From Acidihalobacter sp. (GTDB lineage: Bacteria; Pseudomonadota; Gammaproteobacteria; DSM-5130; Acidihalobacteraceae), in contig JALUXU010000020.1 of NCBI GenBank assembly GCA_027013225.1, positions 239 to 64,238 on the forward strand: a DNA stretch of 64,000 nucleotides. Direction: 5' to 3'. Shown piece after piece: positions 3,551 to 48,446 of the stretch. The notes under the pieces were generated by a model. It did not search any database, had not been told where the DNA came from, and worked only from the letters and a program-made list of their open reading frames with translations. Numbering within the stretch: the stretch's first letter is position 1; each line of letters opens with the position of its first letter. The translations under genes and the position numbers were made by a program.

Positions 3551-5050
3551 ATGACTCCCGAACAATTCAATGCCCTCGCCTCGCGGGGGTTCAATCGCAT
3601 CCCAGTGATGCGCGAGATACTCGCTGATCTCGATACGCCTCTGTCTGCGTACCTCAAACTCGCCCATGGCGCGCCCTACAGCTACCTTCTCGAATCGGTG
3701 CAGGGAGGGGAGAAATGGGGCCGTTATTCCATGATCGGCTTGCCTGCGCGGGAGATTCTGAGCGTAATGGGTAATGAAGTGCGCGTGGAACGCGATGGCC
3801 TTGTCAAGGAACGCGCCACTGTGGATGACCCCCTGGCTTGGATCGAGGCTTATCAAAACCGCTTCCGGGTGGCCGAGAACCCTGATTTGCCGAGATTCAG
3901 CGGCGGTCTGGTCGGTTATTTCGGCTTTGAAACGGTGCGATTCATCGAGCCGCGGTTGGCGGCGCGCCGCCTCAAAGATAAGCCCGACCCCCTGGGTACG
4001 CCGGATATCATGCTCATGGTGTCCGATGAGGTGGTGGTATTCGACAATCTCAGCGGCAAATTAAGCTTCATAGTACATGCCGATCCGGCTGAGCCGGAGG
4101 CCTTGCGAAAGGCACAGCGGCGTCTTGATGAATTGGTGACGCGTTTGCGCAGCGGCATGGCCGATTACACACCCGCAGCGGTGGCGCGAAACGTGGAAGA
4201 ACAGGATTTTCGCTCCAGCTTCAGCCGTGAGGGTTACGAGGCCGCCGTCGAGCGGATTCGCCAGTACATCGTCGATGGCGACGTGATGCAGGTCGTGCCC
4301 TCGCAGCGCTTGACGATCCCTTTGGCCGCCCGGCCCCTGGACGTATATCGCGCCTTGCGCACTCTCAATCCATCGCCCTATATGTACTTTCTTGATCTGG
4401 GAGAGTTTCATATCGTCGGCTCCTCACCTGAGATTCTGGCGCGCCTCGAGGACGGCGAGGTGACTGTGCGGCCGATAGCGGGTACCCGCCCGCGGGGAAG
4501 AACGCTGGCCGAAGATCAAGCGCTGGAGGCCGACCTGCTATCCGATCCAAAGGAACTGGCTGAGCATCTCATGCTTATTGATCTGGGGCGCAATGACGTG
4601 GGAAGGGTGAGCGAAATCGGCTCGGTGAAGGTAGTCGAGCAAATGGTGGTCGAGCGCTATTCGCATGTCATGCACATCGTTTCCCATGTAACCGGTCGCC
4701 TCAGGGCAGGGCTGGGCGCCATGGATGTCTTGCGGGCGACCTTTCCAGCTGGCACCGTTAGCGGCGCACCGAAGATCCGGGCTCTGGAGATCATTGACGA
4801 GCTGGAGCCGGTTAAACGCGGCGTATACGCCGGCGCGGTCGGTTATCTTTCATGGAACGGCAACATGGATACAGCCATTGCCATCCGCACGGCGGTTATC
4901 AAAAACGGCGAGCTTCATATTCAAGCCGGCGGTGGGATCGTCTATGACTCGGTTCCCGCCACGGAATGGGAGGAGACTCTGAACAAGCGCCGCGCCATGT
5001 TCAGCGCTGTGGCCTTGGCCGAGGCGGGACTCGATGGATCTCACCGTTGA
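3551..5050 (+). CDS. trpE: Anthranilate synthase component I
   Basis: [42 protein letters not shown]; start taken at MTPEQF. Confidence 0.96.
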
Positions 5051-5768: not shown

Positions 5769-6799
5769 GTTTGGTGAACGCGCTCGGCAAACTACATGCG
5801 GGCGAAGATCTCAATAGCGATGAAATGCGTGAGGCGATGGACCTGATCATGAATGGAGAGGCCACGCCCGCGCAAATAGGGGCGTTCCTGATGGGGTTGG
5901 CCATGAAGGGCGAGACGGTGAGCGAAGTCGCCGCTGCCGCTGAAGTCATGCGCAAGCTGGCCACGCCGGTGGATATCGATACCCAAGGCGTGGTCGATAT
6001 CGTCGGCACCGGTGGCGATGGCGCTCGAACCTTTAATGTTTCCACCACGGCGAGCTTCGTTGTGGCCGGGGCTGGAGCGCGGGTGGCAAAGCATGGTAAT
6101 CGCTCCGTGTCCAGCGCTTCTGGCGCCGCTGACTTGCTTGAGGCAATGGGGGTGAACTTGAATCTCGCGCCGCCCGCGATCGCCAAGTGTATCGAGGAGG
6201 CTGGAGTGGGATTCATGTTTGCTCCCCTGCATCATTCGGCGATGAAGCATGCCGTGGGTCCAAGACGTGAAATGGGGGTGCGTACGATTTTCAATGTCCT
6301 CGGTCCCTTGACCAATCCGGCGGGTGTGGTCAATCAACTGTTGGGAGTCTATGACCGGTGCTGGGTGTTGCCTATCGCAGAAGTCCTGCGGCGCCTCGGT
6401 AGCCGACATGTTCTGGTGGTGCATTCGCAAGACGGGCTGGATGAAATCAGTATCGCCGCACCCACTGAAGTGGCGGAATTGGTGGATGGCGAAATCAGAA
6501 CATATCAGATTGCGCCGGAAGATTTTGGATTGTCACGCGCTGCGCTTGATGCCATCCGGGTCGACGATCCAGCCTCCAGCCGGGCGATGGTCGAAGATGT
6601 GTTGGTCGGCAAGCCAGGAGCGGCTCGCGATATCGTGTTGCTCAACGCCGGCGCGGCGCTGTATGTGGCCGGCGCGGCAGAATCGATTGCCGATGGTGTG
6701 CGTCGGGCCGCCGAGAGCCTGGACAGCGGCGCAGCCCGTGATCGGCGTGATACTTTGATAACGCTGAGTCAGCAACTGGCCGGAGAACAGCACCCATGA
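5765..6799 (+). CDS. trpD: Anthranilate phosphoribosyltransferase
   Basis: [23 protein letters not shown]. Confidence 0.97.
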
Positions 6800-7620
6800 A
6801 CGTCAAGCCTCCTGACATCTTGCGCCGGATGCTCGCTCACAAGAGCGAAGAGTTGCGTCAGCGGGAAAGCCATATGCCCCTTTCTGAACTGCGTGAGCGC
6901 GCGGAGAACGCGCCCCCCACGCGTGATTTCGCTGCGGCCATCGAGGCTCATGTGATGGCAGGTCGTGCAGGAGTGATCGCTGAGATAAAACGGGCCTCGC
7001 CGAGCAAAGGGGTGATCAGGGAAGATTTTTCGCCCGCCGACATCGCTCGCCGCTATGCAGCTTGCGGAGCCGCCTGCCTGTCGGTTCTCACCGACCGCGA
7101 ATTCTTTCAAGGCGACGACGAGTATCTTGTCAGGGCGCGGATGGCGTGCGCTTTGCCGGTGTTACGCAAGGATTTTACCATCGACCCCTATCAGGTCTAT
7201 GAGGCCCGGGTGTTGGGCGCTGATTGTATCCTTCTGATCGTCGCCGCGTTGGATGACACTCGACTGAACGAGTTGTTGTGGCTGGCGCGTGAGCTCGATA
7301 TGGACGCCCTCGTTGAAGTGCATGACCGAGGCGAGCTGGAGCGCGCTCTGAATCTACCGGCACACCTGATAGGAGTGAACAACCGAGATCTGCGTGATTT
7401 TGAAACGCATATCGAGACCACATTGAATCTATTGCCCCTGATTCCCAAAGACCGCCGCATTATCACCGAAAGCGGAATACGCACTCGTGCTGATGTGAGT
7501 CGTCTGCGTAAGGCTGGAGTGCAGGGATTTCTGGTGGGCGAAACATTCATGCGCGCGCCCGATCCGGGGGCGGCGCTGGCCGAATTGTTCGATCTTGAAT
7601 GTTCTGGAGAAGGATCATGA
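6796..7620 (+). CDS. trpC: Indole-3-glycerol-phosphate synthase
   Basis: [36 protein letters not shown]. Confidence 0.97.
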
Positions 7621-38874: not shown

Positions 38875-40338
38875 TCAGCTCTGGGGATCGAGCGACAGGA
38901 CTCCGGCAGTGCGGTCGAGGTCTTCGGCGATCTCGCGGAACTGCTCCAGCGCCGCCTCCAGATCCTCGACGATCTCCTGGGCGATGACCTCCGGCGGCGG
39001 CAGGTTTTCGGTCTCGTTCAGGGATTCGTCCCTGAGCCAGAAGATGTCCAGGCTGGCCTTGTCACGGGCCACCAATTCTTCGTAGTCGTAGGCGCGCCAC
39101 CGGCCTTGCGGGTTGTCCTCGCGCCAGGTGGCCTTGCGCTCGTGGCGCTTCTCGGGCTTGTAGAGCGCGACGAATTCGTCCAGATTCTCGCGCCTGAGCG
39201 GATGGGTCTTGAGGGTGAAGTGCTTGTTGGTGCGCAGGTCGTAGATCCAGAGTTTCTTGGTCCAGGGTTTCTCCGAGGCCGGTTTCTTGTCGAAGAACAG
39301 CACGTTGTCCGGCACCACCACGGCGGCGCGGCCGTTGACCTTGAGCAGGGTCTTGATGTGCTGCACGAAGTTGAGCTGCTTATTGGAGGTGGTGGTCCAG
39401 AAATCGTCGCGCTCGACCGTGTCCTTTTCCTTGCTGACCTTGCCTTCCTCGCCGACGATGGTGGTGCTGCTCTTCTTGCCGAAGGGCGGATTGGTGAGCA
39501 CCAGGTTGAAGTGCTCGCCCGGGTCGGCGGCCAGCGAATCGCCCACCTCGATGGGCTCATACTCCTGGCTGCCGATGCCGTGCAGCAGCAGGTTCATGGT
39601 GCACAGGCGCGCCGTGGCCTGCACCAGCTCCCAGCCCTTGAAGGTCTTTTCCTTGAGGAACTTGCGTTCCGTCTTGGTCATGTGAGGATGGTTCTTCACC
39701 ACATAGTCGTGCGCGGCGAGCAGAAAGCCGCCGGTGCCGCAGGCCGGGTCGCAGACCGTCTCGCCGGGTTCGGGCTGCATCACATCCACGATGGCCTGAA
39801 TCAGCGGACGCGGGGTGAAATACTGTCCGGCGCCGGACTTGGTGTCCTGGGCGTTCTTCTCCAGCAGGCCCTCGTAGGCGTCGCCCTTCACGTCGGCGCT
39901 CAGCGACGACCAGTTTTCCTTGTCGATGAGATCCACGATCAGCCGCCGCAGCTTGGCCGGGTCCTGACAAATTCATCAGGAATGAATTTGGACGCACGGA
40001 GTGCGCCCGCAGGGTGAGCGCCAGGGATGGCGCGAATCAAATTTGTTCTGCGCCTTGTTGAAGATCAGTCCCAGCAGGCCCTTGTCCCGGCCCAGCGTCT
40101 CCAGGGTGTGACGATAGTGATCGAACAGCGCGTCGCCGTCCTTGTTGATCAGGTTCTGCCAGCCGTAACCTGCGGGAACCGGACTCGGTTGCTTGTAGGG
40201 CGGCCGCGAGCGCTCGTCGGCCATCTTCAGAAACAGCAGATAGGTCAGCTGCTCGACGTAGTCGTCGTAGGACATGCCGTCGTCGCGCAGCACGTTGCAG
40301 TAGTTCCAGAGTTTCTGGACGATGTTGGCAGGAGTCAC
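38875..40338 (-). pseudogene. hsdM: Type I R-M methyltransferase, interrupted by a 72-bp insertion and apparently internally deleted
   Basis: IVQKLWNYC N-terminus; GQYFTPR, DPACGTGGF, NPPF; in-frame stops inside the insert at 39967-40038. Confidence 0.9.
39967..40038 (+). mobile_element. 72-bp four-hairpin insertion element (copy A)
   Basis: Removing it restores KAQNKF-QDPAKLRRL in hsdM. Stems: CAAATTCAT/ATGAATTTG, CGCAC/GTGCG, CCC/GGG, GCGCC/GGCGC. Confidence 0.8.
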
Positions 40339-40691
40339 GTCTTCCCCTCTTTGGCCGGCAAGATCAGGCGCAGTCGTGTGGCGAGCGCAGGGATGTCGTC
40401 TGTCGCTGTGTGATACAGGAGTGCATGATCGATCCGCCCGTATTCGTGGGCCAGGATATTCCGTATCCCGATGATTTCACGCCAGGCAAGTTCGGGGTGC
40501 GCATCACGGAAGACTTGAGACAGTGTGCGAGCGGTTTCACCAACCAGTTCCACATCCCGCTCGATCGCTCGCTGAAGCAATCGATTGTCGTGGAATGCCG
40601 CCTCGTCGTGCTCTTTGAGCAGATCCGCGATCTCTTCACAGATTTGCAGCATGTCCCAAAGATACGCCGCATCGCGTTCATCAGGCTGCAT
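40335..40691 (-). CDS. HepT/DUF86 HEPN ribonuclease toxin
   Basis: RNILAHEY = RX4HXY motif; AYLWDML N-terminus. Confidence 0.88.
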   Translation of the reverse strand: MQPDERDAAYLWDMLQICEEIADLLKEHDEAAFHDNRLLQRAIERDVELVGETARTLSQVFRDAHPELAWREIIGIRNILAHEYGRIDHALLYHTATDDIPALATRLRLILPAKEGKT

Positions 40692-41016
40692 ACAACGTCT
40701 CCAGATCCCGCATGATGGTCCGCCGACGATAGGGATTTTCGAGCACGACGGGGGTGACGAGATCGACCCGGCGTCCGCCGAACAGCCGCGAGAATTCATC
40801 CGATATCGTGACCATTTTCCCCAGCGATGGCGCCTTCCCCTCCTCGAACTCCACCATCAGGTCGATGTCGCTGTCCGGCCTCAGCTCGCCGCGCGCCGCC
40901 GAGCCGAACAGCGACAGGCGGCGGATGTCATATTTTCTCGCCAATGCCTGTAACGCCGCCCGAGGCACCTCGAGGCCCTCGGCGATCACGATCATGTCAT
41001 CGGTCTGCCCGTTCAT
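40681..41016 (-). CDS. MntA-like minimal nucleotidyltransferase antitoxin
   Basis: FGSAARGELRPDSDID = GSX10DXD; overlaps the HepT start. Confidence 0.88.
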   Translation of the reverse strand: MNGQTDDMIVIAEGLEVPRAALQALARKYDIRRLSLFGSAARGELRPDSDIDLMVEFEEGKAPSLGKMVTISDEFSRLFGGRRVDLVTPVVLENPYRRRTIMRDLETLYAA

Positions 41017-41024
41017 CTTCAGCC

Positions 41025-41440
41025 TCAGGATACCACCGCCGTCGTGGACTCGCTGGCGGCATCCGCATCGGTCGGGCCCGCGCCCTCATGGCTCGGAACC
41101 AACCGGCCCGAGAAGGCGGCGGCGAGGATGGACTGGCGCAGGCGCTCGGCGCGCTGGAGGTTGGCCTCAACTTGGGCCTCAGTTTCGTGGAGGATGGAGA
41201 GGCGGCGGTCGACTTCGGCGACGATGCGGTGTTGTTCGGCTAGTGGTGGTAGTGGCAATCCGATTGAGCGGAAACGGCCCAAGCTTATTTTCAGCTGAGC
41301 AACGCCTTTCGTTATTCCTAAATATTGCTTGTGAACCAGTTCCGATTCAATTGCATACATGAAGAATCGTCCGGAAAGGACGCCCTTTGAAAGCCTTAAC
41401 TTTATACAGTCCGCAGTAATGATTGCTTTTGGTTTGCCCC
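41025..41440 (-). pseudogene. hsdS: 3' fragment of type I R-M specificity subunit
   Basis: End of an AT-rich TRD followed by LPLPPLAEQHRIVAEVDRRLS...LRQSILAAAFSGRLV; no start codon. Confidence 0.85.
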
Positions 41441-42132
41441 GCGCACCTTGGGGTCGTGCAGGGGCTTGACGGCTTGCTGGATGAGCTTTTCGCGGGCGGC
41501 GGCGAGGGCTTGGTCGGGGATGGGCCGGTCGTCGTCGGGGGCGAGGCCGAGATCGGCCCGGTCCTGTTCGATGTGGCGGTCGGGGTCGAGGGCCTCGACG
41601 ATGCGATGGCTGAGGTCCTTGACGCCGAGGCCCCCGGTCAGCTCGCGCACCTACTGGTCGTCTTCGGCGCTCATGCGGTGTTCCATGCGGGCCAGGCGGC
41701 CGGCGAGGGAGGTGAGCACGTCTTCGTCCGTCGAGCCGAAGGCGACGGCCTGCATGAGCTTGTCGAAGGCGACGGTGGGCTTGCGCTCCATGGGACGGGA
41801 GTCGGTCTTGTCCTGCTCGCAGACGCCGACGGCATCGACGATGACGAAATGGTCCTTGACCTTGGCGTCCGGGGTGACGCTCTGCAGGTCGTCGGGCTTG
41901 ATCACGCGCACGCCGCGGCCCTTCATCTGCTCGAAGAATGCACGGGACTTGACCGCGCGCAGGAACATGACCACCTCCACCGCCTTGATGTCGGTGCCGG
42001 TGGCGATCATGTCCACGGTGACGGCGATCCTGGGCATGGGGCTGGTGCGGAACTCCTGGATCAAGTCCCGGGGTTTCTTGCCGGTGGTGCGGTAGGTGAT
42101 CTTCTGGGCGAAGTCGTTGCCCTTGGCGAATT

Positions 42133-42206
42133 GTCGATGGCGCCTCCTGTGCCATCGCCCTTCGGGCGCACTACGTGCGACCAAATCGGCTGTCCTGCCG
42201 ATTTGT
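42133..42206 (-). mobile_element. 74-bp four-hairpin insertion element (copy B)
   Basis: Removing it restores VREEFAKGNDFAQKITY. Stems: CAAATCGGC/GCCGATTTG, CGCAC/GTGCG, CCC/GGG, CGATGGC/GCCATCG. Confidence 0.8.
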
Positions 42207-42755
42207 CCTCGCGCACGATCTCGACGATGTTCTCGGCGTGCGCATCGTCCTTGGCGAAGATGAGGGTCTTGGGCACCCATTCGCGGCCGGGGAAGATCTC
42301 GGTGAACAGCTTGTCGCGGTAGGTCTGGATGATGGTGCGGATCTGGTCGGGGGCGACCACGTCGCGGTCGAGCTGGTTGGGGTCGTATGCGAACTCGTCG
42401 TCGAGCTGTTCCCAGCGTTTCTTGCGGGTGTCGCGCTCCATGACCTGCACCGCGTAGCCGGATTCCACCTTGCTGCCCTGCTCGCTGATGGCGGTGCGGA
42501 TGCGATAGACGTCGTAGTTGACGTTGACGCCGTCGGCCACGGCCATCTCGTGGTTGTATTCCATCACCAGGTTCTGGTGGAAGAAGCCGAAGGTCTGCTT
42601 GGACGGCGTTGCGGTGAGGCCGATGAGGTAGGCGTCAAAGTATTCGAGCACCTGCGCCCAGAGGTTGTAGATGGAGCGGTGGCATTCGTCGGTGACGATG
42701 ATGTCGAAGGTTTCGATGGGAATATTCGGGTTGTATGCAATCGGCTCCGGTCTGC

Positions 42756-42860
42756 GCGGGAGGCCGCCAGCCGGCGTTGCGGGACTCGCTGCGCTGCTCA
42801 TTGCGCCATCCGGCAATTGCGCTGCCCGCTTGCTTTGCGCCTTGGCTGGCGGCCTCCTGC
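42756..42860. repeat. Palindromic MITE/REP-like element inserted in frame in hsdR
   Basis: Inverted repeats GCGGGAGGCCGCCAGCC (42756-42772) and GGCTGGCGGCCTCCTGC (42844-42860), 16/17 match; encodes a low-complexity extra peptide. Confidence 0.65.
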
Positions 42861-43867
42861 TGTGCCCGGTGGTATCCATCAGGGCGCCCAGTTGATCAAC
42901 CGAGATTTCTTCCAGATCTTCCTCCAGCTCGCGGCCCTTGAGCATGGCGTACAGACGCTGGATGGTGCCGATGCAGACCCGCGCGGTGGTGTCGAGGGTG
43001 TTCGATTGCAGGCGCTGGACGATGTATTCCTCGGTGAACTTGAAGTTGTTGTAGGGCGAGCGGTACTGCTGGAACTCCTTGAGGGTCTGATCGGCGAGGT
43101 TGCCGCGGTCCACCAGGAACAGCACCCGGCGCGCCCCGGCGAACTTGATCAGCCGGTAGATGAAGCTGATGGCGGTGAAGGTCTTGCCCGAGCCGGTGGC
43201 CATCTGGATGAGCGCCCGCGGGCGGTTCTCGCGCAGGGACTGCTCCAGGTTGCGGATGGCCGTGATCTGGGCGGGCCAGAGGCCTTCCTCGATCAGCGGC
43301 GGCATCTGCTGCAGGCGGGCGAGGAAGGTGCCATGTCGGTTTGCGTAAGCGGGCGGCTGCTCGGCGACCTGATCAAATGGTACCGTTTCCAGCCACGCGG
43401 CGAGGGTCTCGGGCCGGTGGAAGGCGAAGATGGGTCTGGATCGGGGCTCCGGGTCAAGGCCGTTGGTGAAGCGCGTCTCGGCGCCGGTGGACTGATAGGA
43501 GAACGGCAGCGGGTTGCGCCAGGCCGGCAGGTTGTCCGGCAGGCCGGTGGTGTACTTGGCCGCCTGCACCTCCACACCGGTGAGCGTGGCGCCCGCCTTC
43601 TTGGCCTCGATGACCCCGGCGGCCTTGCCATCGATGTACAAGCAGGTAGTCCGCGAAGCCGTGGCCGGCCTTGAGGGGAAACTCGCGTATGGCGATGCCG
43701 CGGGCGGCGTGGATGTTGGTGGCGCCGGCGTCGAAGATCGCCCAACCGGCCTGCTTGAGCAGGCGGTCTATGCTTTCTCTGGCCTGATCTTCCAATGCGC
43801 TGGATGCCATCCGGCTGCCTCCCTTTTGCGTGATGCTCCCCGACCCAAACCGATCCAAATGCGGGGC

Positions 43868-47750: not shown

Positions 47751-48446
47751 ATGGAAATGAACAGGAAAGTTTTCACACGCCTTGCCCTGGCGGCCGCCTG
47801 CGCCGCCCTCGTTGTTCCGCCCGCGTTCGCTCAGGGCATGATGGGTGGCGGCCAAGGTGGCCCCGGCATGATGGGTGGCGGCCAAGGTGGCCCCGGCATG
47901 ATGGGTACGATCAACAATCGCCCCGTGGCCCCCGGCTGGGGCGGTGCCACCTGGAATTATGCGCAGGTGAAACGCTATCTGGCTGCTTCGGAGGCGGACG
48001 GCCGCGCCGAGGGCAAGCGCGTGGTGTTCCAGGGGCATGCTGTGACCATCGACATGGTGGCGGTGCAACCCGGGCATCCCGACACCACCTTCGAGGTGCA
48101 TGGCATCACCAATCCGACTCTGGTGGTGCCGGCCGGCGCGACCGTGCATCTCAATCTTGTCAACATGGACTACGGCAACAACATGGAACACGGCGTGATC
48201 ATCACCGCCGCGCCGCCGCCCTATCCGCGCTATCTAATGCAGACCATGGCCCAGTACGGCCCGCCTCTGGCCGGCATCTCGCCGCCGATCCCGTGGCGCA
48301 GCAAGAAAGACCTGAATCAATCGCTGTTCGCCGCGGCCGGTACGACTTTCACCGCCCCGAGCCGACCCGGTGTCTACTGGTACGTATGCCAAACGCCTGA
48401 GCATGCCGAGAAGGGCATGTACGGCAAGTTCGTGGTGACGGGATGA
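47751..48446 (+). CDS. Rusticyanin/sulfocyanin-like type-1 blue copper protein
   Basis: Signal peptide; FEVHGITNPTLVVPAGATV; ligands H(MEHG), C-H-M in YVCQTPEHAEKGMYG. Confidence 0.82.
   Translation: MEMNRKVFTRLALAAACAALVVPPAFAQGMMGGGQGGPGMMGGGQGGPGMMGTINNRPVAPGWGGATWNYAQVKRYLAASEADGRAEGKRVVFQGHAVTIDMVAVQPGHPDTTFEVHGITNPTLVVPAGATVHLNLVNMDYGNNMEHGVIITAAPPPYPRYLMQTMAQYGPPLAGISPPIPWRSKKDLNQSLFAAAGTTFTAPSRPGVYWYVCQTPEHAEKGMYGKFVVTG
47835..47906 (+). repeat. 30-bp tandem repeat (2.4 copies) encoding GMMGGGQGGP
   Basis: GGCATGATGGGTGGCGGCCAAGGTGGCCCC x2 plus GGCATGATGGGT. Confidence 0.95.

Follow-up and report, generated by a model that had tools for sequence, protein, structure and literature searches.

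The stretch of DNA analyzed here, a window of 64,000 nucleotides on contig JALUXU010000020.1 of an Acidihalobacter sp. assembly (GenBank GCA_027013225.1), carries a type I restriction-modification (RM) operon in which hsdM and hsdR are each interrupted by a small, structured element. Copy A lies in hsdM, and copy B, the principal subject of this report, lies in hsdR (Table 1). Both copies are DNA insertions built on one plan of four hairpins (H1 to H4), and they belong to a family that, judging from its sequences, also takes in the tRNA-linked repeats (TLRs) of Escherichia coli.

On the minus strand, copy B reads ACAAATCGGCAGGACAGCCGATTTGGTCGCACGTAGTGCGCCCGAAGGGCGATGGCACAGGAGGCGCCATCGAC, with ..GTGCGCGAGG as its left flank and AATTCGCCAAGG as its right flank, and its insertion point in hsdR is GAGG^AATTC, where the caret marks the junction. 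The two ends, ACAAATCGGC.. and ..GCCATCGAC, are not inverted copies of one another. In silico deletion of the 74 bases fuses two frames into one hsdR product (..IVEIVREE/FAKGNDFAQKITYRTTGKK..); because removal of copy B restores a single helicase-type frame with the domains listed in Table 1, we assign the host gene as hsdR, frameshifted by the insertion. Copy A, located by an inverted-repeat search, adds 24 codons to hsdM, two of which are stops. Its right flank is AAATTTGTTCTG, and the right flanks of both copies are coding sequence. The copies lie 2.1 kb apart in opposite orientation; each starts with ACAAAT after a G and ends in C before AA, and their stems differ in sequence with the pairing retained. 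The first-pass annotation of this DNA, made from the sequence alone, had described copy B in this place and at this insertion point and had recognized copy A as a second, oppositely oriented copy with common ends and different paired stems; both descriptions hold.

Table 1. Coordinates of the two element copies, their parts and their host genes (positions in the window)
Feature	Position	Strand	Remarks
Copy A	39967..40038	+	72 nucleotides (nt); antisense in hsdM at CCTG^AAATT; model R1, 86 bits; one related contig lacks it
Copy A, H1	39968-39990	+	
Copy A, link	39991-39992	+	
Copy A, H2	39993-40005	+	
Copy A, H3	40006-40014	+	
Copy A, H4	40015-40036	+	
Copy A, tail	40037-40038	+	
hsdM	38875..40338	-	type I methylase, interrupted by copy A; Pfam on healed product: HsdM_N + N6_Mtase
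Copy B	42133..42206	-	74 nt; four hairpins; model R1, 72.6 bits; empty site in related contigs; layout A + H1 + 2-nt link + H2 + H3 + H4 + 2-nt tail
Copy B, H1	42182..42205	-	CAAATCGGC / GCCGATTTG, 9 bp; loop AGGACA with GGA motif
Copy B, link	42180..42181	-	GT; pairs with tail AC at 42133-42134 (2-bp helix)
Copy B, conserved core	42158..42179	-	H2 CGCAC-GTA-GTGCG + H3 CCC-GAA-GGG; a C-GNA-G triloop on each
Copy B, H4	42135..42157	-	CGATGGC(AC) AGGA (GGC)GCCATCG; GGA in loop; from covariance-model alignment
hsdR	41651..43641	-	type I restriction subunit, frameshifted by copy B; Pfam on healed product: ResIII, SWI2_SNF2, Helicase_C

The source of the window is a hydrothermal-vent metagenome, and contigs of four sequencing runs were aligned to positions 39700-42500. 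In two other runs, contigs of related strains (~91-95% identical) join 42131 to 42206, exactly 74 bases (42132-42205) being absent with a 1-base ambiguity; the empty copy-B allele reads GAGGAATTC and shows no duplication beyond a possible single A. One related contig is also without copy A (..CCTG^GAACTTGTTCTG), and a Chromatiaceae metagenome-assembled genome (MAG), L211, has an intact hsdM paralogue with an empty copy-A site. Because related-strain contigs miss exactly those bases, copies A and B are DNA insertions with exact ends and with no target duplication longer than 1 nt. A 73-nt element accompanied by a 1-nt duplication of A is a formally possible alternative description.

L211 has two hsdM copies, at 3798-4582 and 6299-7264; one holds two elements (4191-4262 and 4407-4478) along with another insert of ~108 nt, and the other is intact. 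One of these elements occupies the exact copy-A site but differs from copy A in its H2 and at four compensated places in H1, and the further copy lies 145 nt off; both are antisense to hsdM. In the window's own locus, one contig of run X2 links the core of A to that of B on the opposite strand (40001 / 42175); its depth is 158x, where the locus has ~14x. Another genome's copy, or an assembly join through the common 32-nt core, is the most likely source of this contig, an inversion between A and B being the alternative.

The whole type I restriction system is decayed. The hsdS gene is present only as a C-terminal fragment (~41025-41400), and the healed hsdR terminates at an in-frame stop (..AEDDQ, stop codon at 41651-41653 on the minus strand), beyond which ~80 open codons continue in the same frame without a Pfam match; this stop may be a second hsdR lesion. 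Between hsdM and the hsdS fragment, inside the operon, lies a toxin-antitoxin pair of HepT (a HEPN RNase) and MntA (a nucleotidyltransferase), at 40335-41016 on the minus strand.

Fold, family and target site

As a single strand, each copy folds far better than its shuffles (z -4.7 to -6.3; 0/200 shuffles). The family plan was drawn from 61 distinct full-length copies in other genomes, most of them 72 nt long: an initial A; H1 of 9 bp with the loop C(N)GGA; a 2-nt link; H2, CGCAC-GNA-GTGCG; H3, CCC-GNA-GGG; H4; and a 2-nt tail. H4 has nine positions and the loop (A)GGGA(U) or UGGA, with positions 2-3 either Watson-Crick or tandem G.A/A.G. Of the 61 copies, 57 have a GGA motif in the H1 loop and 55 have one in the H4 loop, which gives two per unit, ~45 nt apart. 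The H2-H3 core and the loop motifs are conserved among copies found by the core pattern, and one L211 copy has the H3 variant GCC/GGC. Pairs of the G.U type are rare in the stems. C-GNA-G triloops are especially stable in DNA. Since GNA triloops, tandem G.A and GGA loops are all confined to the strand as written here, we take that strand to be the one that folds.

The evidence for the helices comes from compensatory change. In an alignment of 54 sequences, 94.7% of cells are paired, versus 74.5% in shuffles, and 20 pairs show double changes; the percentage is inflated by the requirement for H1 and H4 hairpins in the seed alignment, a requirement that selected neither the link-tail pair nor the types of pair. 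None of 500 shuffles reaches any measure, and slid controls are 26-42% paired. All nine pairs of H1 covary (99.6% of cells paired), as do all nine positions of H4, and the 2-bp helix between link and tail covaries family-wide (GA/TC, GT/AC, GG/CC, AA/TT, CA/TG), its inner pair being AU in 31 sequences, UA in 18, GU in 2, UG in 2 and GC in 1 and unpaired in 0. In the core-pattern set the search pattern left no freedom in H2 and H3, and variation in H2 was obtained from a second scan anchored on H3 and H4; in this wider family H2 covaries too, its inner stem taking 29 different forms and its loop being GNA in 57/93. Covariation is thus strong in every variable helix, as the first-pass annotation had proposed from two copies, and the stems are free to change provided that pairing holds. 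Because the link covaries with the tail, a feature that the first-pass annotation had missed, the two base pairs between them close the H2-H4 part and put the 5' and 3' ends of the element side by side.

How large is this family? A covariance model, R1, was built from 54 seed sequences, mainly from other genomes. In the window it finds copy A (E 8.5e-17) and copy B (E 6.6e-14), values that are partly circular since the seeds include copy B and a sequence (L016) identical to copy A; the next match scores 14.8 bits. In the fetched loci R1 makes 125 + 31 significant matches. The proposal of a structured insertion-element family is therefore borne out, with >150 copies elsewhere and only A and B in the window. 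Scans of contigs from one genome per species with the core pattern and with an H3+H4 pattern each returned at least 120 loci. The core-pattern matches listed are mostly gammaproteobacterial (Woeseiaceae, Steroidobacteraceae, Thiohalomonadales, Chromatiales, Lysobacterales, Legionellales and Francisellaceae), together with Beta- and Zetaproteobacteria and a few MAGs of other phyla; the H3+H4 scan adds cultured Erwinia, Pantoea, Aeromonas, Shewanella, Microbulbifer, Rheinheimera, Rhodanobacter, Marinospirillum, Paraglaciecola and Psychromonas, as well as some Desulfobacterota. Several MAGs are multi-copy, copy-rich cultured bacteria include Microbulbifer donghaiensis, M. rhizosphaerae, Rheinheimera spp., Aliiglaciecola sp. 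CAU 1673 and Rhodanobacter spp., and a variant of the element at 95.8% identity lies in unrelated flanks of two genomes. The plasmid collection gave only weak partial matches and one Aeromonas chromosome filed as a plasmid; nothing relevant was found in the phage collection, and viral contigs gave 1 and 0 matches in the two scans.

The target was read from 78 distinct sites. Position -1 is G at 61 of the 78, +1 is A at 62, +2 is A at 58 or G at 17, and +3 is T at 39 or C at 28; the element itself begins with A at 75/78 and ends with C at 70/78. The target consensus is (T)(C)G^A-A-(T/C), in agreement with the G^AA target named in the first-pass annotation. A hairpin-loop target at the window sites is weakly indicated for B (z -0.9) and absent for A. 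Copies that span open reading frames (ORFs) lie in sense orientation in 4 cases and antisense in 7.

Several arrangements of the element deserve mention in their own right. Head-to-tail units with a period of ~80 nt and without a tRNA-derived spacer occur in L203 (~1300-1550), L209 (~600-810), L164 and L234 (Aliiglaciecola, Rheinheimera and a Coxiellaceae MAG). The 22-nt core stands alone, lacking its customary H1 and H4, in L024 (a Bacteroidota MAG), where it tops a long perfect hairpin, and in L012/L056 (a Fibrobacteres MAG); these cores are either distant variants or chance matches. In L033, an element at 619-690 lies ~270 nt downstream from a tmRNA gene, where it breaks an apparent P4-type integrase gene in its N-terminal part.

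Relation to tRNA-linked repeats

TLRs were first seen by Egan and Landy in 1978, and Rudd counted 22 copies at ten loci of E. coli K-12 in 1999 (both as cited in PMC8144298). [quoted passage not shown] On the strength of sequence and architecture, we identify the copies next to tRNA, tmRNA and 5S genes as the TLRs of E. coli, among them Rfam RtT (RF00391) and the small RNAs (sRNAs) RrA, RrB and RrF. R1, which was built without E. coli sequences, matches the rrnB T1-T2 repeat at 53.5 bits (E 3.8e-11). The K-12 rrnB T1-T2 spacer holds a complete element, ACAAATCCGCCGGGAGCGGATTTGAACGTTGCGAAGCAACGGCCCGGAGGGTGGCGGGCAGGACGCCCGCCATA, between ..CTCCTGAGTAGG and AACTGCCAGGCAT (L238, 339-412, equal to K-12 4171838-4171911), which resolves into ACAAATCCGC-CGGGA-GCGGATTTG, AA, CGTTGC-GAA-GCAACG, G, CCC-GGA-GGG, TGGCGGGC-AGGA-CGCCCGCCA and TA. 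The RtT consensus consists of GGUUCGA, an element of the same architecture and AAUCCUUCCCCCACCACCA: it has the same H2, the same H3 (CCCGAAGGG) and the same H4 (CGA..GAG, with tandem G.A) between GGUUCGA and AAUCC..CCA, and thus the same G^AA junction. The "178-bp repeats" of E. coli tyrT-tyrV (rttR, tpr) show the same order of hairpins. The RtT model matches Erwinia and Aeromonas units at 45-54.7 bits, and the Erwinia copies satisfy both it and R1. That RtT has tandem G.A supported by covariation was already noted by Rivas (bioRxiv 10.1101/2020.02.04.933952). The first-pass annotation had seen here the best candidate for an undescribed system; since the members linked to tRNA and 5S genes are already known, that description falls away.

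The window copies differ from TLRs as these have been defined. TLRs are recognized by their place behind a tRNA or 5S gene and by their 18-19 terminal bases; copies A and B have neither, and they lie in protein genes, whereas the E. coli TLRs lie in tRNA and rRNA operons. Over 39900-42300 the RtT model (gathering threshold 45 bits) finds no match even at E up to 10, and Rfam as a whole, at gathering thresholds and at E up to 10, has nothing at A or B, including no intron or ribozyme. Because A and B lack the TLR position and the terminal identity and yet have the core and its exact ends, the 72-74-nt core is the inserting unit, and it inserts at G^AA. TLRs have been described as transcribed repeats and not as mobile DNA (PMC8144298), and in the literature that we searched they are nowhere described as mobile or inside protein genes, PMC8144298 being the only substantive treatment; searches for the core sequence, for T-loop insertion elements and for GNA-triloop elements returned nothing relevant or specific. 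Relative to that literature, what is new is a bare core that inserts alone into protein genes and a target rule that accounts for the TLR hallmark, its 19 nt being tRNA positions 58-76. One further report offers a lead that falls short of evidence: in an E. coli "mobilome" preprint, coverage of tyrT-rttR-tpr is raised in exonuclease-resistant DNA under stress (bioRxiv 10.1101/2024.07.17.603846).

Within the family at large, 44/129 copies have a tRNA or tmRNA gene no more than 700 nt away. Writing E for the element, the usual flanks are GGTTCG-E-AATCC..CCA or, with the tRNA on the opposite strand, ..ATTCG-E-AAC.., and the site in the frame of the element is always TCG^AA. Elements in tRNA sequences also occur in the anticodon loop (TTCG^AAA) and in the D-loop of tRNA-Ser (GGTCG^AATGG). 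By our tally, ~30/41 tRNA-linked copies are in sense with the tRNA and ~11/41 oppose it. We rejected the idea that T-loop copies interrupt working tRNAs: when the element was excised in all registers and the product given to ARAGORN, a tRNA across the junction was obtained in only 8/129, and on inspection each of the 8 has an intact copy alongside or is an assembly loop (L090). The first-pass suggestion that similar shapes sit at the G^AATC of tRNA T-loops is right as to the place, although the tRNAs concerned are not working ones.

The tRNA sequence that bears an element is instead a second, partial or decayed copy adjoining an intact gene. L005 has a full-length tRNA-Met with the element followed by an intact tRNA-Met, and L015 a decaying tRNA-Arg with the element followed by tRNA-Arg; 5' fragments with the element precede tRNA-Ser(CGA), and short 3' remnants, often as tandem units, stand behind tRNA-Ser. 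The series L005, L015, L191/L193, L007 looks like successive stages of decay. A crude probe found an element in 24/24 nearby duplicates, the control set being small. In L043 and L083, a 5' fragment of tRNA-Ser(CGA) carries two elements, a diverged one in the D-loop (GGTCG-E-AATGGG) and a standard one in the anticodon loop. In the complete genome of Marinospirillum sp. ABH-597 (L161, L177, L228), all three rrn operons end in 5S, a terminator, the unit ..CATGTG-E-AAAGTAGGTCATCGTCAGGCAC and a second terminator; the unit is a pseudo-5S 3' end with an element, and the layout is the same as that of E. coli rrnB T1-T2.

Could the element be an intron-like intervening sequence whose removal from the transcript leaves hsdR functional? 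Its ends are paired together, copy B is in sense, and the family resides inside RNA genes. We regard this as extremely unlikely, given that copy A is antisense, that Rfam has no intron or ribozyme at the element, that tRNA copies bearing an element are always accompanied by an intact copy, and that the RM operon is decayed otherwise too, by the hsdS fragment and the hsdR stop codon. Occurrence in both orientations relative to genes argues more generally against a purely RNA-level, intron-like element. A self-splicing intron or small ribozyme was discarded on the grounds already given, the empty Rfam result and the antisense copy A.

Possible routes of movement

We consider it probable that copy B represents the bare core of the family of TLRs, RtT and RrA/B/F, a 74-nt insertion module that is non-autonomous and is mobilized through a single strand by an enzyme acting in trans. 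Our confidence is moderate for the insertion element itself and low for a DNA rather than an RNA route. In favor of single-stranded DNA are the signals on one strand, the particular stability of C-GNA-G triloops in DNA, the asymmetric ends, the lack of duplication and the occurrence in both orientations relative to genes. In this mechanism, single-stranded DNA would be excised and re-joined at N^A junctions; the enzyme would read shape together with the conserved H2-H3 core, and the folded element would offer both ends to one active site. The commonest targets would be T-loops (TTCG^AAT), anticodon loops and D-loops containing G^AA. Since insertions in a gene's only copy would be lost, survivors would be those in a second (tandem) copy, and the hit second copy would decay into the classic TLR, with its 5' part lost and its 3' end kept, probably for processing (as PMC8144298 suggests for RNase E). 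A T-loop junction at G57^A58 leaves tRNA positions 58-76 to the right of the element and would therefore yield the terminal 19 nt of a TLR.

The broader proposal is that TLRs are resident copies of a widespread and still active mobile element of ~72 nt and four hairpins, inserted at the G^AA of exposed loops, chiefly the tRNA T-loop, by an unrecognised strand-transfer enzyme, which could be a new dedicated protein or a conserved host enzyme. We put this forward tentatively, as a proposal that could well prove wrong. For >40 years neither a function nor an origin has been agreed on for TLRs, RtT and RrA/B/F, and, if the TLR core is a mobile module with a defined fold, ends and target, the odd anatomy of TLRs would be explained and an old orphan class of repeats would become a testable mobile-element problem. 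Furthermore, an insertion activity aimed at the tRNA T-loop would become searchable, and many Proteobacteria could be annotated for a source of gene inactivation that has here disabled an entire type I restriction system. There would also be a practical bearing, since the rrnB T1-T2 region carries a complete copy. That region is the terminator cassette of many cloning and expression vectors; the element has up to 9 places per E. coli genome and 30 on plasmids, which is consistent with a vector cassette of this kind.

Several observations weigh against the element being mobile DNA moved in trans. The search for co-occurring transposase or recombinase genes, put forward in the first-pass annotation as a check, gave no support: an all-versus-all comparison of ORFs at 120 loci (±4 kb flanks only) found no recurrent transposase or recombinase near the copies and only syntenic housekeeping genes, and a Pfam scan of 46 larger window ORFs or healed products yielded neither a transposase nor an integrase. 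No full-length autonomous relative, circle junction or excision product was seen. No flank position covaries with the element, and the left side is strong only at the -1 G; since no flank base covaries with the element, the target does not appear to be read by a guide. The copies in E. coli rrn operons look static, with 1-3 places per genome, and an empty rrnB allele was not seen in E. coli, the best matches containing only filled sites. The inflation of the paired percentage noted above belongs to the same account. Finally, the GGA loops, the tandem G.A and the covariation are equally expected of a functional RNA, and the T1-T2 repeats of rrnA, rrnB and rrnD are processed sRNAs (RrA, RrB and RrF) that bind Hfq and CsrA in vitro via GGA motifs, RrB being the only one for which binding to CsrA was demonstrated (PMC8144298). 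A larger autonomous element was considered and rejected: a copy-rich MAG shares only a ~250-nt unit, and the 5 kb common to the Marinospirillum copies is the rrn operon itself.

These last points raise the alternative that a functional RNA domain came first, a two-site CsrA/RsmA-binding or processing module serving tRNA and rRNA operons, and that the hsdR and hsdM copies are rare accidents of illegitimate recombination and owe nothing to a dedicated mobility system. The high frequency of GGA in the H1 and H4 loops fits such a module. The CsrA consensus from systematic evolution of ligands by exponential enrichment (SELEX) is RUACARGGAUGU, and the H4 loop CAGGGAUG equals its core. As in RNAs of the CsrB/RsmZ type, GGA stands in hairpin loops; unlike those RNAs, the element has no Rfam match here, its most conserved part (H2-H3) is without GGA, and its units are dispersed and inserted in DNA. 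RrA/B/F, the E. coli subgroup that binds CsrA in vitro, are conserved in Enterobacterales (PMC8144298), and single syntenic copies stand behind tRNA-Ser in Aeromonas. Nonetheless, we judge this reading unlikely. Illegitimate recombination does not predict exact, identical boundaries at 78 sites with a fixed target and no flanking homology, and neither the two insertions in one operon, the second and third in L211 hsdM, the multi-copy genomes with unrelated flanks nor the head-to-tail arrays would be predicted; moreover, the other 19 E. coli TLRs score <0.01 as CsrA binders (PMC8144298).

Mobility mediated by RNA is the other route to be weighed. Copies in tRNA and rRNA operons would serve as masters, the RNA module being cut out and ligated into exposed G^A sites or reverse-transcribed, with return to DNA by recombination. 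Copies do concentrate in the most transcribed operons, mostly in sense; the targets are the three exposed tRNA loops and the 3' part of 5S; partial gene copies sometimes come with a leader or trailer, as if from a precursor; and the hallmark of 19 nt stops at tRNA position 58. Transcripts of TLRs are stable and processed (PMC8144298), and a group II intron fragment in the window (see below) indicates that retroelements visit the genome. Against these stand the antisense orientation of copy A and of both L211 copies with respect to hsdM, the quarter or so of tRNA-linked copies that oppose the tRNA, the failure of any reverse transcriptase to recur near the copies, and the lack of unpaired conserved bases such as a ribozyme would need. 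We therefore rate an RNA route as improbable, at about the level of the functional-RNA reading.

Among known families of mobile DNA, those closest in likeness include elements driven by HUH enzymes, namely, deletion derivatives of IS200/IS605-type elements (palindrome-associated transposable elements [PATEs]) and repetitive extragenic palindromic (REP) sequences moved by REP-associated tyrosine transposases (RAYTs). PATEs and the element described here have in common asymmetric ends without inverted terminal repeats, hairpins near the ends, no target duplication, a fixed short motif and structure on one strand. The differences are substantial: here the conserved segment is internal, the stems are free in sequence although those enzymes read specific hairpins, flank and element show no guide-target covariation, and orientation is not consistent. 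H1 begins at element base 2 and leaves no room for a 5' guide tetranucleotide, and no tnpA, tnpB or RAYT gene lies next to any copy. The opposite orientations of A and B and the adjacent inverted element pairs of L095 and L037, which also count among the points against our preferred mechanism, do not fit the strict lagging-strand bias of IS200/IS605. REP sequences and their paired forms (REPINs) are single imperfect palindromes with a GTAG-type 5' tetranucleotide, extragenic and often in inverted pairs, whereas this element has four hairpins and intragenic copies, is not confined to extragenic inverted clusters, and has no GTAG-type motif (the GTA of the H2 loop in B is GGA in A and GNA in the family). 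A known family of this kind is thus, in our estimation, very unlikely.

Two other classes were tried and rejected. A classical miniature inverted-repeat transposable element is ruled out by the absence of terminal inverted repeats in B and by an empty site without duplication beyond the possible single A, and neither strand of A or B shows the integron attC boxes, RYYYAAC ... GTTRRRY, which recombine at G^TT. Rickettsia palindromic elements are short structured repeats found in protein-coding and stable-RNA genes without a transposase of their own. Those elements are in frame and kept in the protein; here copy B shifts the frame, copy A adds stops, and there is no sequence similarity.

Other features of the window

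The remaining genes of the window are ordinary chromosomal ones (rpe, gph, trpEGDC, ftsH, leuA, ispH, copA and recG), and no tRNA or tmRNA gene was found in its 64 kb. An Rfam match to group II intron D1-D4-6 (95.7 bits) lies at 1036-1309 on the plus strand, between a DUF2726/Zn-ribbon gene and rpe. Because no reverse-transcriptase ORF follows it, the next ORFs being rpe, gph and trpE, the match probably represents a fragment of an intron. Within a Met/Gly-rich, cupredoxin-like ORF (47751-48446) of the copper-resistance cluster, 30 nt (GGCATGATGGGTGGCGGCCAAGGTGGCCCC) are perfectly duplicated in tandem at 47835-47894.

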